Shown here piece after piece: positions 1 to 2,312 of a stretch of 2,312 nucleotides of DNA. The position numbers and the translations under genes are program-made. Position 1 is the stretch's first letter, and each line of letters opens with the position of its first letter. The stretch comes from Escherichia coli (GTDB lineage: Bacteria > Pseudomonadota > Gammaproteobacteria > Enterobacterales > Enterobacteriaceae): assembly GCF_044324785.1 (NCBI RefSeq), contig NZ_CP172133.1. One strand, given 5' to 3'. A model generated the notes under the pieces. It was not told where the DNA came from. It saw only the letters and a program-made list of their open reading frames with translations, and did no database searches.

Positions 1-44
1 CGTGTACAGGATACTCCTGTAACGTGTGGGCGGTATTCCCGTAA
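1..44. repeat. Two tandem 22-bp iteron-like direct repeats (1-22 cgtgtacaggatactcctgtaa; 23-44 cgtgtgggcggtattcccgtaa), upstream of the repL-like gene
   Basis: Head-to-tail 22-bp units with 15/22 identity to each other; unit 1 is 19/22 identical to the unit at 2291-2312. Each unit starts cgtgt and ends gtaa. No spacers, so not CRISPR. A 22-bp period is typical of plasmid iterons. Confidence 0.55.
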
Positions 45-52
45 TCTATATT

Positions 53-118
53 GAGTGACATTTTGTTTTTTGGGCATTATATTGTCTGTCACCTTTATAA
101 AGTGACAAAGGCGATAAA
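53..118 (+). promoter_or_regulatory. Putative promoter/operator region of the repL-like gene, with three GTGACA/TGTCAC hexamers (55-60, 87-92, 102-107) forming an inverted repeat around a palindromic cTTTATAAAg core, and a weak AAGG ribosome-binding site at 108-111
   Basis: Inverted hexamers tgtcac (87-92) and gtgaca (102-107) flank the palindrome ctttataaag (92-101), with another gtgaca at 55-60. Possible -35 TTGAGT (51-56) and -10 CATTAT (75-80). The promoter hexamers are weak and the assignment is tentative. Confidence 0.3.
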
Positions 119-616
119 ATGAACATTACTGAAAGAACGGATAGCAAGAAAAAAGTTTTAAGACAAAATATTACTGAGGTTATAGATAGAGAAACTGGAA
201 ACATAACACAAGAAATAACCGATATAACAGTTCAATTTCCACAAGAACCTGCGTATGTGAAAATTTATATTGATAATTTATGTGCTGTCACAAAAGCACC
301 TGATTCTCTAAAAGATGTTTTATTTTTAATTCTTAGGAAATTGGATTATGACGGATATATTGCATTATCAACTAGATACCGTAAGGAGATCTGTAAATTA
401 TTGGGAATAAAAGACGGAACATTACGTAACAGATTGTATTCATTATCAAAAATGGGGATTATTGCTAGTTGTGGCGGTAATGAATATCAGGCGAACCCTA
501 ATTTATTTGCTCGTGGTGAATGGAAAAAAATAATTGAACAGCGTCGCGAGTTTGAAATGAGAATTAAATATTCACCTAACGGTGAAACTATTATAACAAC
601 CGAAGAAATAAAATAA
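119..616 (+). CDS. Winged-helix DNA-binding protein, RepL-like plasmid replication initiator (165 aa)
   Basis: Intact ORF, ATG at 119 and TAA at 614-616. By-eye similarity to the staphylococcal pSN2 RepL family as I recall it: YVKIYIDNL resembles FVKAYIVQL, the central segment LSTRYRKEICKLLGIKDGTLRNRLYSLSKMGII resembles the RepL helix-turn-helix/wing, and NPNLFARGEW resembles NPELLMRGDD. Iteron-like repeats lie immediately upstream. Confidence 0.7.
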   Translation: MNITERTDSKKKVLRQNITEVIDRETGNITQEITDITVQFPQEPAYVKIYIDNLCAVTKAPDSLKDVLFLILRKLDYDGYIALSTRYRKEICKLLGIKDGTLRNRLYSLSKMGIIASCGGNEYQANPNLFARGEWKKIIEQRREFEMRIKYSPNGETIITTEEIK

Positions 617-625
617 TGTGCACCT

Positions 626-655
626 AAATAAGGTCTTTTTAAAAAGACCTTATTT
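626..655. terminator. Perfect 30-bp palindrome (aaataaggtcttttt|aaaaagaccttattt) between convergent genes; putative bidirectional terminator or protein-binding site
   Basis: Positions 626-640 are the exact reverse complement of 641-655. It lies between the repL-like stop (616) and the mobC-like stop (650-652). The stem is AT-rich with a GGTC/GACC core and has no clean downstream U-tract on either strand, so terminator function is uncertain. Confidence 0.35.
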
Positions 656-1075
656 GAATAAATCCGAACCTGGATATTTATTTTTATGTATCCTTTTTAT
701 TATTTTTATTTCATCCTTTATTAAATCCATTTCATTATATACATCAGAAATTCGCTTCGTTACTATTTTCATTTCATCGCAAAGTAAAATTATTTTATGC
801 ATCACCTCGAGGTACTCCTTATCCTTCGGCCGCTTTCCCTTATCAAATAATTTCTTCTGCATCCGACCAAGTCGGATTAATTCATCTAAATACCTGGAAG
901 GTACGCGCTGTTTTATTTCATTATTTAAACTTGCCGTCCTGATATATTCTGAAATTGTCAGTCCTTCGTTCTTCGCTCGCCGTCTGATTTCGCTTGCGAC
1001 TCTGTTATTTACTCTAAGGGTGATAACCTTAGTTCTCTGCCGTACTTCTGAACCACTACGTTTATTTTTAGCCAT
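650..1075 (-). CDS. Ribbon-helix-helix relaxosome accessory protein, MobC/MbeC-like (about 141 aa from the ATG at 1075; the ORF track extends to an upstream GTG at 1174)
   Basis: The N-terminal region has the hallmark basic stretch, beta-strand and helix: RQRTKVITLRVNNRVASEIRRRAKNEGLTISEYIRTASL, matching the KRxxxVxVRLTxEExxxLxxxAxxxGxSxSEYLR pattern of mobilization accessory proteins. I prefer the ATG at 1073-1075 because a GGAGAG Shine-Dalgarno sits about 10 nt upstream (minus-strand reading), whereas the 1174 start is GTG with no good ribosome-binding site. Stop TAA at 650-652. Confidence 0.7.
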   Translation of the reverse strand: MAKNKRSGSEVRQRTKVITLRVNNRVASEIRRRAKNEGLTISEYIRTASLNNEIKQRVPSRYLDELIRLGRMQKKLFDKGKRPKDKEYLEVMHKIILLCDEMKIVTKRISDVYNEMDLIKDEIKIIKRIHKNKYPGSDLFK

Positions 1076-1144
1076 CGCAATGACTCTCCATTTTGCACGT
1101 TTGGGGTGTCGGGGCTTGCCCTGACAGGAGGTATTCTCATGCAA

Positions 1145-1181
1145 GCGAATGTATTCGCGGTATGACGAATACACATCCTGT
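1145..1181. other. Candidate oriT: overlapping inverted repeats (gcgaat-gt-attcgc at 1145-1158; gtattcg-N8-cgaatac at 1151-1172) followed by cATCCTGt (1174-1181), which matches the MOBP-type nic consensus YATCCTG|Y
   Basis: Inverted repeat followed by a nic-like heptamer about 70-100 bp upstream of the preferred mobC-like start, which is the usual oriT placement. The heptamer alone would occur about once by chance in a sequence this size; the adjacent inverted repeats and the position are what make it a candidate. Confidence 0.3.
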
Positions 1182-1524: not shown

Positions 1525-2082
1525 TTAACATTGCTCTTAATATTTATTTTGTCCTGGCAATGGGAGCATTAATCCCCGTGCAGTGCTCCGCCAGCTGCTG
1601 ACAACCTCGACATATAACCATCGATACGATAGAACATCAGGGCGCGTTTCCGGCAAGAACTAACCATGGGGATGGTTTGCGTGCCGACAAACGCCGGAAC
1701 GCGCCTCAAATCCACCAAGCCGCCACGGTTCCGGCAGCGCCTTGAGCGCAACCCGAAACCGTCTGGGGAGAACCCCAGACCCCCACCGCTGCAACATCAT
1801 CGGTCTACGACCACCTACCAACCGAGTGGCTACCTGTGCCGTGCAAACAGGCTTTGCAGGGGGCTGGCGCGGTTCCTGGCGACCTGAAAGCCCCTGGTTA
1901 GGGGTATCGGCGCGCCTGGCCTCCTGAAACCCTCTGTAAGCGTTTTTCGCGCCTTCCATGCCCTGACGGGCATTTAGACCCCGTTTCGTGCGTCTGGGAG
2001 GCTCTGAGCGCGTTTAACAGATGACCAGCGACTCGATCGCCTGAGATCAAATCGGGATCATCAACGATATGCGAGAGGTGAC

Positions 2083-2146
2083 ACCGCTCGCCGCAGCCCC
2101 AGCGACCGAGCCGCCAGGCTCGCGAGTGGGCGAGGAAGCGGAAGAG
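2083..2146 (+). other. Segment homologous to the conserved sequence just downstream of the ColE1/pMB1 origin (the region reported to hold primosome assembly sites)
   Basis: Window accgctcgccgcagcc-ccagcgaccgag-ccgccaggctcgcgagtgg-gcgaggaagcggaagag aligns with pUC19 accgctcgccgcagcc-gaacgaccgag-cgcagcgagtcagtga-gcgaggaagcggaagag from memory, in the same orientation and order relative to the cggttcctggc motif. Confidence 0.55.
2133..2146. repeat. Second copy of the 14-bp direct repeat aggaagcggaagag
   Basis: Exact match to 1438-1451. Embedded in a GGAAG triplet cluster (2134-2156). Confidence 0.8.
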
Positions 2147-2160
2147 AACCGGAAGCTACA

Positions 2161-2178: not shown

Positions 2179-2230
2179 TATTAAAATTGTCACTTCGTAA
2201 ATAGAGATAATGCCTCGTGCTTATGGATAC

Positions 2231-2245
2231 ATATTAAAAATATAA
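2231..2245. repeat. Second copy of the 15-bp direct repeat atattaaaaatataa
   Basis: Exact match to 1510-1524. Confidence 0.8.
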
Positions 2246-2268
2246 GATATCCGAATTAGGCTACATAC

Positions 2269-2312
2269 GGGCTGATCGCCAATGTTGTAACGTGTAGAAG
2301 ATACACCTGTAA
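2269..2312. repeat. Iteron-like 22-bp unit (2291-2312 cgtgtagaagatacacctgtaa) preceded by a possible degenerate unit (2269-2290), continuing in phase with the units at 1-44 if the molecule is circular
   Basis: The 2291-2312 unit is 19/22 identical to 1-22. The window ends exactly at a unit boundary and starts exactly at the next. The 2269-2290 unit keeps only the terminal tgtaa and a few other positions. Confidence 0.5.

Follow-up and report, generated by a model that had tools for sequence, protein, structure and literature searches.

The window considered here, a stretch of 2312 nucleotides from Escherichia coli (contig NZ_CP172133.1 of assembly GCF_044324785.1), corresponds to a complete small circular plasmid that is linearized within its iteron array and encodes an initiator protein of the RepL family. 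The region that extends from position 2079 through the junction of the circle to position 616 is probably the replication module of this plasmid, in which RepL would read the degenerate half-site TGTNNY at both the iterons and the operators and would repress its own promoter. The plasmid works like a module of the pHW126 type, the known members of which are pHW126 from Rahnella and pIGRK and pIGMS31 from Klebsiella pneumoniae; by protein family, it belongs to RepL proper and is not a theta-replicating iteron replicon of the Rep_3 type. This ~2.3-kb plasmid and related ones abound in E. coli and other Enterobacterales, where routine surveillance lists them as 'Col(MG828)', and no published dissection of replication control in a Col(MG828)-type plasmid was found in the literature. 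A comparison with PLSDB identifies 19 records of 2310-2313 bp that span the window end to end with 96.6-99.9% identity and come mostly from E. coli but also from Klebsiella, E. fergusonii and Actinobacillus. One of the full-length records is typed Col(MG828) and has two annotated genes, 'replication/maintenance protein RepL' and 'plasmid mobilization protein MobA'.

Once the circle is rejoined, the control region is seen to contain three tandem 22-bp iterons followed, in the same 22-bp register, by a degenerate, hybrid fourth unit at 40-61 (Table 1). Each of the three is an imperfect inverted pair of half-sites, TGTAAC-N8-GATACA, GATACT or GGTATT. The linearization point lies inside the repeat array, so that an earlier note on this DNA, made from the linear sequence, took in the array only in part. 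The elements that it described in the segment 23-118 and next to it are all present (GTGACA at 55-60 and 102-107, TGTCAC at 87-92, the palindromic TTTATAAA at 94-101 and the 165-amino acid (aa) open reading frame (ORF) at 119-616), but the segment holds only a part of one iteron, the array itself running from 2286 across the junction to 39. The order proposed in the note, namely iterons followed by a promoter-associated inverted repeat and the rep gene, is real and is kept in all 14 lineages compared below.

The sole strong plus-strand match to a sigma-70 promoter in the control region is GTGACA(55-60)-N17-TATATT(78-83), and the two operator-type sites, O1 and O2, bracket this predicted promoter of repL. 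Judging from the promoter position, transcription would start at about 90-91, inside the left arm of O2. The palindromic core TTTATAAA of the note could be taken for the core of the promoter. This sequence is part of the AT-rich spacer of O2; the equivalent spacers in relatives are also AT-rich and are not conserved (CCTATAAAA, CTCATTCAA, TCTATTTAC, CTAATATAC, GTTATATAGA and others). The hexamer TATAAA (96-101) within it was considered as a -10 element and rejected because there is no acceptable -35 hexamer 16-18 nt upstream and the spacer sequence varies among relatives. Thus, TTTATAAA is not the promoter core, and the best promoter is the one given above, the position of which is conserved.

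The hexamer GTGACA occurs 6 times against 0.56 expected, a count that none of 200 shuffles reaches; it ranks second in enrichment among 1248 hexamers, with a Poisson P of 2.7e-5 that is borderline after correction. Two further copies of TGTCAC/GTGACA lie outside the control region, one at 286-291, inside repL (codons 56-58), and one at 2078-2083, at the left edge of the ssi-like element. Variation in the control region among eight near-identical plasmids is confined to positions 15, 38, 39, 71, 72, 75 and 86, which miss all half-site hexamers and the -10 element, and there is no substitution in the arms of O2. By our own estimate, the chance of such avoidance is ~0.06, which is weak but consistent support.

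Table 1. Features of the plasmid, in the order of the rejoined circle from the ssi-like element onwards
Feature	Position	Strand	Sequence and remarks
ssi-like GC-rich palindromic element	2079-2150	+	ccgctcgccgcag ... gcgaggaagcggaagag; motif also written CCGCTCGCCGCAG ... GCGAGGAAGCGGAAGAG
Isolated TGTCAC half-site	2188-2193	+	In the AT-rich stretch before the iterons; context ATTGTCACTTCG
CR-like block	2240-2285	+	ATATAAGATA ... AGGC ... ACGGGCTGATCGCC; between the AT-rich stretch and iteron 1
Iteron 1	2286-2307	+	TGTAACGTGTAGAAGATACACC; internal imperfect inverted repeat TGTAAC-N8-GATACA
Iteron 2	2308-2312 and 1-17	+	TGTAACGTGTACAGGATACTCC; TGTAA before the circle junction, CGTGTACAGGATACTCC (17 nt) after it
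Iteron 3	18-39	+	TGTAACGTGTGGGCGGTATTCC; 20/22 nt identical to the iteron of L036
O1	40-60	+	CGTAAT-N9-GTGACA; distal operator-type site formed by the hybrid fourth unit; predicted -35 provided by its right arm (55-60)
Predicted -10	78-83	+	TATATT; paired with the -35 GTGACA at 55-60, 17-nt spacer; 10/12 matches
Divergent promoter-like site	81-108	-	TTGTCA-N16-GACAAT; overlaps O2; 9/12 matches, weak
O2	87-107	+	TGTCAC-CTTTATAAA-GTGACA; proximal operator; spans the predicted transcription start and ends at the Shine-Dalgarno sequence
Shine-Dalgarno sequence	108-111	+	AAGG, 7 nt 5' of the ATG; context AGTGACAAAGGCG in common with Arsenophonus L007
repL	119-616	+	165-aa RepL-family initiator; single winged-helix domain, residues about 62-125 (nt 302-493)
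Palindrome	626-655	.	AAATAAGGTCTTTTTAAAAAGACCTTATTT; perfect, 30 bp; 17-nt arms 100% complementary; between convergent repL and mobA
NikA-like ORF (mobA)	650-1174	-	PF21983, E = 1.4e-16; NCBIfam MobA; ribbon-helix-helix relaxosome accessory protein

Conservation in relatives, rather than the statistics of the window, is decisive for regarding these elements as real. Upstream regions of related rep genes were drawn from PLSDB, GTDB genomes and metagenome/Logan contigs and represent 14 lineages with 34-81% Rep identity; L047 was excluded from the tests because its called start is evidently wrong, with iteron-like sequence inside the ORF. Automatic detection, along with the sequences themselves, reveals in all 14 lineages 2-4 iterons with a 22-bp period, followed by a promoter and then by a short inverted repeat before the rep start (Table 2). 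The inverted repeat equivalent to O2 is located 9-20 nt before the ATG in 12 of the 14 and farther upstream in L045 and L019. A unit of the O1 type is present as TGTAAC-N9-GTGACA in L036 and L046, CGTAAC-N9-GTGACA in L039, TGTAAT-N9-ATGACA in L037, TGTCAT-N9-GTGACA in L041 and CGTAAT-N9-GTGACA in the window, with an N10 version in L043. Independent promoter scoring places the -35 in the right arm of O1 in the window, L036, L039, L037, L046 and L041, and in the same six the -10 ends 3-4 nt before O2. In L009 and L007, TTGACA is found at the place of the predicted -35, and the -10 at the conserved position varies among relatives (TATAAA, TATACT, TATGCT, TATGTT, TAAATT).

Table 2. Iteron hexamers and proximal operators in the window and in related RepL lineages
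Lineage	Rep identity	Iteron hexamer	Proximal operator
Window		TGTAAC	TGTCAC-N9-GTGACA
L036	81%	TGTAAC	TGTCAT-N9-GTGACA
L039	64%	TGTAAC	TGTAAT-N9-GTGACA
L037	63%	TGTAAC	TGTCAC-N9-ATTACA
L046	62%	TGTAAC	TGTAAC-N9-GTGACA
L009 (Arsenophonus triatominarum)	61%	TGTAAC (one unit)	TGTCAC-N10-GTGACA
L043	61%	TGTACC	TGTACC-N10-GGTACA
L041	60%	TGTAAC	TGTAAT-N10-GTTACA
L045	55%	TGTACC	TGTCAC-N9-GTGACA
L048	52%	TGTACT	TGTACT-N10-GGTACA
L050	50%	TATACT	TATACT-N10-AGTATA
L049	49%	TGTCCC	TATCCC-N10-GGGACA
L007, L004, L019	34-37%	TGTCAC-N7-GTGACA palindromes	TGTCAY-N8 operator

The hexamers TGTAAC, TGTAAT, TGTCAC and TGTCAT mix within single operators (L046, L039, L037 and L041), which implies that the iteron and operator hexamers of the window are variants of one half-site. 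More generally, the operator half-site and the first hexamer of the iteron are variants of one site, TGTNNY. Lineages with TGTACC, TGTACT, TATACT, TGTCCC or TGTCAC iterons carry a matching operator hexamer. When the arms of the proximal operators are compared with the iteron hexamer of their own lineage, the sum of mismatches is 21, compared with a permutation mean of 44.5, a value not reached in any of 100,000 permutations; with one lineage per hexamer class, it is reached in 2 of 720. This co-variation ties the operator to whichever protein reads the iterons and argues against a separate regulator.

Such a regulator was suggested in the earlier note on the ground that the operator hexamer is unlike the iteron. 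The protein that binds the GTGACA inverted repeat could then come from the host or be the ribbon-helix-helix protein of the NikA type that is encoded on the minus strand at 650-1174: the operator TGTCAC of the window is indeed not identical to the iteron TGTAAC, and the plasmid does encode a second DNA-binding protein (PF21983, NikA-like). However, TGTAAC is one base away from TGTCAC, the arms track the iterons of their own lineage, single operators mix both types of hexamer, and the same operator architecture is present in L039, L043, L046 and L007, which lack the NikA-like gene and possess a MOBV relaxase or other genes instead. Furthermore, the predicted recognition helix of RepL is identical across the lineages with the two hexamers. 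The suggestion of the note is therefore not borne out, and binding by a second regulator appears highly unlikely. The related proposal of two recognition modes fails as far as sequence is concerned but survives as geometry: the spacer between operator half-sites is always 1-2 nt longer than that between iteron half-sites, that is, 9-10 nt compared with 8 nt in the clade of the window and 8 nt compared with 7 nt in the L007 clade. Thus, these comparisons would support two modes solely as a difference in spacing.

The same data bear on two other explanations of the repeats. GTGACA and TGTCAC might be promoter elements only, -35-like variants of TTGACA that serve the repL promoter and a divergent minus-strand promoter and are not bound by RepL, with rep expressed constitutively or controlled elsewhere. 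GTGACA does match the -35 consensus at 5 of 6 positions, and the promoter scan both uses 55-60 as the -35 and finds TTGTCA-N16-GACAAT on the minus strand. Divergent promoters overlap the rep promoter in pIGMS31 and pIGRK, and the minus-strand site resembles the divergent, Rep-repressed promoters P_MS5 of pIGMS31 and P_RK2 of pIGRK, although for the present plasmid this likeness is speculative. Nevertheless, in the TGTACC, TGTCCC and TATACT lineages the operator arms switch to hexamers that are not promoter-like, which a -35 role cannot explain, and the arms hold a fixed inverted geometry of 9-10 nt directly after the -10, so that a purely promoter-related role is considered very unlikely.

Alternatively, the inverted repeat at 87-107 might not be a DNA operator but instead form a hairpin in the leader of the repL mRNA, where it would influence translation or the stability of the transcript. 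The RNA of 84-124 folds with -8 kcal/mol (z = -2.5; 2 of 200 shuffles), its outer stem touches the AGGC of the Shine-Dalgarno sequence, and the changes of arm class between lineages are symmetric. However, with the predicted start at ~90-91, inside the left arm, the full stem would be left untranscribed. The pairing, moreover, is broken in L039 (an A-G mismatch and a wobble), in L037 (two mismatches) and in L046 and L049 (one mismatch each), and the same half-sites occur in O1 and the iterons, upstream of the promoter, where they co-vary with the operator. A leader hairpin is, accordingly, a very improbable account of this repeat.

The 165-aa RepL protein matches the Pfam family PF05732 with 21.7 bits over residues 10-138, marginally above the gathering score of 20.3, and RefSeq annotates the identical protein as RepL. 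An hhalign comparison started from a profile of 35 sequences detects similarity to the RepL protein of pSN2 with the probability of 96% (E = 3.5e-9, 119 columns). An AlphaFold model (mean pLDDT 71.7) has a confident core at residues 50-130 (pLDDT 85-94) that consists of one winged-helix domain, with helices at 62-72 and 85-95, a recognition helix at 99-111 and a wing at 115-125. A Foldseek search of the PDB with this model retrieves only generic winged helix-turn-helix (wHTH) regulators of the MarR, IclR, CRP and ArsR types (E >= 0.012), with no HUH, Rep_trans or Rep_3 fold among the matches. Likewise, Pfam yields no match of RepL to an HUH or Rep_trans rolling-circle family and none to Rep_3 at E <= 1, a PDB sequence search returns nothing meaningful, and NCBIfam contains no family matching RepL.

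The predicted recognition helix, KDGTLRNRL, does not change among the lineages with TGTAAC, TGTCAC, TGTAAT or TGTACC, and a single protein surface thus evidently tolerates variation at positions 4-6 of the half-site. In the TGTACT and TATACT lineages the helix differs, and in the TGTCCC lineage the change is confined to the N-terminal end (SSKTLRNRL). The idea that this helix encodes specificity was considered and ruled out for positions 4-6, given that the helix is identical across the TGTAAC, TGTCAC and TGTACC lineages.

A further explanation of the inverted repeat is a nick hairpin of a rolling-circle double-strand origin, not a transcriptional operator. RepL/pSN2 and pHW126-like plasmids are classed as rolling-circle, pHW126 Rep and pIGMS31 RepM relax supercoiled DNA, and IR1 of pIGMS31 lies within the minimal origin. 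Against this, the only nick mapped in the superfamily, that of pIGMS31, is upstream of the iterons by the CR element and not at the rep-proximal repeat; every lineage has O2 between its -10 and its Shine-Dalgarno sequence; and the RepL model lacks an HUH or Rep_trans nuclease fold, features that are also reported absent from the pHW126-like and pSN2-like Reps. A nick hairpin at this place is extremely unlikely. It is mainly the co-variation of iterons and operators, along with the conserved placement of the sites with respect to the promoter, that disfavors all four of these rivals to an operator read by RepL.

The closest functional parallel to the present plasmid is provided by the pHW126-like replication module, which consists of an ssi, the CR, four repeats of 20+2 bp, an operator of inverted or direct repeats and a wHTH Rep. 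In pIGMS31, RepM binds the inverted repeats IR1 and IR2 most strongly and the iterons more weakly, the sequences of the two types of site being similar; it represses the repM promoter P_MS1, the start of which lies within IR2 and which is overlapped by a divergent Rep-repressed promoter. The iterons of pIGMS31 are incompatibility determinants, the RepM nick maps beside the CR, Rep-responsive promoters are present inside repM, and two-dimensional gels detect both rolling-circle and theta intermediates. In pIGRK, RepR and RepR' bind the origin and the operator and repress repR. The plasmid analyzed here resembles these modules in the order of elements, the repeats with a 22-bp period, the operators at a strong sigma-70 promoter and the small wHTH Rep; the two inverted repeats around the pIGMS31 promoter correspond to O1 and O2. 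The four repeats of ~20 bp with 2-bp spacers that characterize pHW126-like plasmids are represented by the three 22-bp units and the in-register hybrid unit. It differs from them in that its Rep is not detectably homologous by profile comparison, has 165 aa as opposed to 201-240 and lacks a C-terminal coiled coil, in having three full iterons and a hybrid unit instead of four iterons, and in carrying only a NikA-like gene where they have MOBV or MobK.

With the RepL plasmids of the pSN2 type, the plasmid shares the protein family and the general character of very small plasmids with small (about 18 kDa) helix-turn-helix initiators, but its host is Gram-negative, and an iteron-plus-operator layout is not described for the pSN2 family in the review of these plasmids. 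The pSN2 family is classed as rolling-circle, with a double-strand origin (dso) and ssoA, and lacks a known copy-control mechanism; a 2026 preprint places the pSN2 Rep among winged-helix initiators. According to the literature, pSN2 RepL is only a distant relative of the pHW126-like Reps, to which a PSI-BLAST link connects it, and published accounts disagree on whether the RepL/pHW126 superfamily replicates by the rolling-circle or the theta mode.

Classical theta replicons with Rep_3 initiators (RepA of pPS10, RepE of F, pi of R6K, RepA of pSC101) have an inverted repeat derived from the iteron at the promoter of rep and are autorepressed. The present plasmid is similar to them in its tandem ~22-bp iterons and in a promoter inverted repeat that shares part of the iteron sequence. 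It is unlike them in that RepL has one winged-helix domain as opposed to two and is not a Rep_3 protein, and in that there is no DnaA box near the iterons: the window contains no perfect box, the sole site with 1 mismatch (1353-1361) is distant from the iterons, and the 13 box-like sites in total, with 8.2 expected, are not above chance. The description of this locus as a classic iteron plasmid, also put forward in the earlier note, is thus misplaced. Because the iterons of the window are quasi-palindromic pairs of half-sites, the rule of a monomer on the iteron and a dimer on the operator need not apply.

The present analysis establishes the anatomy of the sequence and its conservation, the co-variation of iterons with operators, and the family and fold of the protein. 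By analogy with pIGMS31, pIGRK and pHW126, RepL would bind the iterons and operators and act as a repressor, the origin would be located in the CR/iteron region, and the order of the rep module, as in the pHW126-like plasmids, would reflect autoregulation by Rep. A mechanism can be proposed for a module in which the ssi-like element, the CR-like block, three iterons, O1, the promoter and O2, the Shine-Dalgarno sequence and repL follow one another. The winged helix of RepL would recognize the single degenerate half-site 5'-TGTNNY-3' as TGTAAC in the iterons and as TGTCAC in the operators. Bound to O1, RepL would occlude the -35; bound to O2, it would block formation of the open complex or promoter escape, with negative autoregulation as the outcome. 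On the three phased iterons, where the half-sites are 8 nt apart and not 9, and together with the CR-like block, RepL would assemble an origin complex. Titration of RepL by the iterons, possibly along with handcuffing, would set copy number and incompatibility.

Several observations weigh against this reading. The hhalign probability is 3.2% for pHW126 Rep and 1.5% for pIGMS31 RepM, and these alignments are collinear but not significant, so that the functional analogy spans a large evolutionary distance; the pSN2, pHW126 and pIGMS31 reference proteins in all these comparisons come from a supplement digitized by optical character recognition. The right halves of the window iterons are weak, with 1-3 mismatches out of 6; perfect inverted half-site pairs within iterons are found in L049 and in one unit of L041. 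The operator hexamer differs from the iteron hexamer in the window, L036 and L045, so that iterons and operators may be bound with different affinities or in different modes. Judged from the window by itself, the repeat is only moderately improbable and therefore suggestive: when the region 40-118 is shuffled by dinucleotides, 7.5% of the shuffles contain a perfect inverted repeat of 6 nt with a spacer of 8-10 nt, 7.9% contain some hexamer in at least 3 copies, and 1.2% contain both. Finally, RepL need not be the sole replication determinant because the plasmid carries a GC-rich block common to about 900 plasmids.

A bolder interpretation is that RepL proteins, which have long been classed as rolling-circle Reps lacking known copy control, form a distinct class of iteron initiators whose single winged helix would use one half-site (TGTNNY in this clade) at two spacings, such that the spacing, and not a change from monomer to dimer as in Rep_3 proteins, switches between replication and repression. 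The inverted pairs may be 7-8 nt apart within the iterons, at the origin, and 1-2 nt wider at the two promoter-clamping operators, for autorepression. This interpretation is tentative and, on balance, doubtful; if it is true and valid for the pSN2-type plasmids, the spacing rule would supply their missing copy-control mechanism. Taken by itself, the RepL module is an ordinary arrangement that extends the known design of the autoregulated initiator to another branch of the RepL superfamily and does not overturn current understanding. The analysis links the RepL plasmids of Gram-negative bacteria to the experimentally studied pHW126-like modules and provides a concrete, testable map that includes the iterons, two operators, the promoter, the TGTNNY half-site and the rule of 8 nt as opposed to 9-10 nt spacing. 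Together, half-site co-variation and the spacing rule make the disputed replication mechanism of the RepL/pHW126 superfamily more testable.

Upstream of the iterons, three further elements are apparent. The CR-like block is moderately conserved across the 14 RepL lineages; a MAFFT alignment reveals a purine-rich ATAAGA/ATAGA box, CAGGC and GG(G/C)CTAGAG, with the end of the block 8-10 nt before the first iteron. By position, it is a candidate counterpart of the ~20-bp CR that pHW126-like plasmids have in common next to their iterons. The isolated TGTCAC half-site may be an extra contact for Rep, given its sequence; ATTGTCACTTCG is found at the equivalent place in L036, and TGTCATTTCG in L045.

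The ssi-like element at 2079-2150 is a candidate primosome-assembly or single-strand initiation (ssi) site, as judged from its sequence, and we take it to resemble the primosome-assembly site of pBR322/pUC. The pHW126-like modules have an ssi at the corresponding place. The ssi-like motif GAGGAAGCGGAA and its partner CCGCTCGCCGCA recur 250-350 nt 5' of rep in L002, L003, L006, L036, L037, L039 and L041, and a MOBQ plasmid of 4.09 kb also has the element, 5' of a rep gene that is unrelated. As single-stranded DNA, it folds into a long imperfect hairpin (-18 kcal/mol) that is not significant compared with shuffled sequences (z = -1.4). A 13-nt motif, GGAAGCGGAAGAG, occurs as a direct repeat at 1439-1451 and 2134-2146, one copy on each side of the GC-rich block, and the second copy forms the end of the ssi-like element; the two copies could mark two single-strand initiation sites or module junctions. 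A family of AT-rich direct repeats, ATATTAAAAATATAA(C/G), at 1509-1526, 2178-2195 and 2231-2248, also flanks the GC-rich block and is found within the AT-rich stretch directly 5' of the CR-like block; it may represent a DNA-unwinding element or a recombination junction.

The GC-rich block itself (1714-2174) has 58-64% GC, compared with about 30% elsewhere in the window, and contains no long ORF, annotation or Rfam match. It is shared at 85-89% identity among the plasmids mentioned above, which include many E. coli and Shigella plasmids of 1.46-1.57 kb. One of the plasmids with the block, pSF301-1 (1549 bp), is also typed Col(MG828) and has only the GC-rich block in common with the window, encoding a different wHTH ORF of 157 aa. 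Therefore, what the Col(MG828) typing marker detects is probably this accessory block, be it an oriT, an ssi or some other element, and not repL. The 1.5-kb plasmids were also considered as derivatives that have lost repL and would thereby demonstrate a second replicon in the window; this was rejected, since only 1714-2174 is shared and the wHTH Rep of these plasmids is their own and unrelated. A scan of the whole window against Rfam at E <= 1 gives only a chance snoRNA match at 620-686 and no known antisense or replication RNA.

According to Pfam and NCBIfam, the NikA-like gene is the only gene of the plasmid besides repL, and no relaxase is carried. Its product has 141 aa in RefSeq and 174 aa if the ORF is read from the first GTG. 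The mobility typing of the plasmid records is inconsistent, either 'non-mobilizable' or 'mobilizable'. The palindrome between the two genes is, from its sequence, likely a bidirectional intrinsic terminator that closes the rep module, although it is absent from the output of a simple terminator scan.

A copy of this plasmid sequence with 99.9% identity is integrated in a 79.8-kb plasmid from E. coli, a variant of 2836 bp has about 520 extra bases, and the sequence is also present in Actinobacillus pleuropneumoniae and on a contig labeled Pseudomonas sp. (the records for these unusual contexts are NZ_KR905387.1, NZ_CP005932.1, NZ_CP031857.1 and L008). Such contexts could reflect broad host range, cointegration or contamination. 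Among the related loci, the one with 61% RepL identity and the TGTCAC-N10-GTGACA operator is found on at least 8 contigs (L009-L015 and L017) of one Candidatus Arsenophonus triatominarum genome. In A. nasoniae (L007), the RepL gene is located between DNA-circularization and tail tape-measure genes on a 32-kb plasmid, which suggests that RepL modules also serve phage-plasmids. In the L048 metagenome scaffold, two divergent RepL genes flank a mirror-symmetric iteron region, an arrangement that stems either from a small plasmid that has dimerized head to head or been duplicated in inverted orientation, or from an error of assembly.

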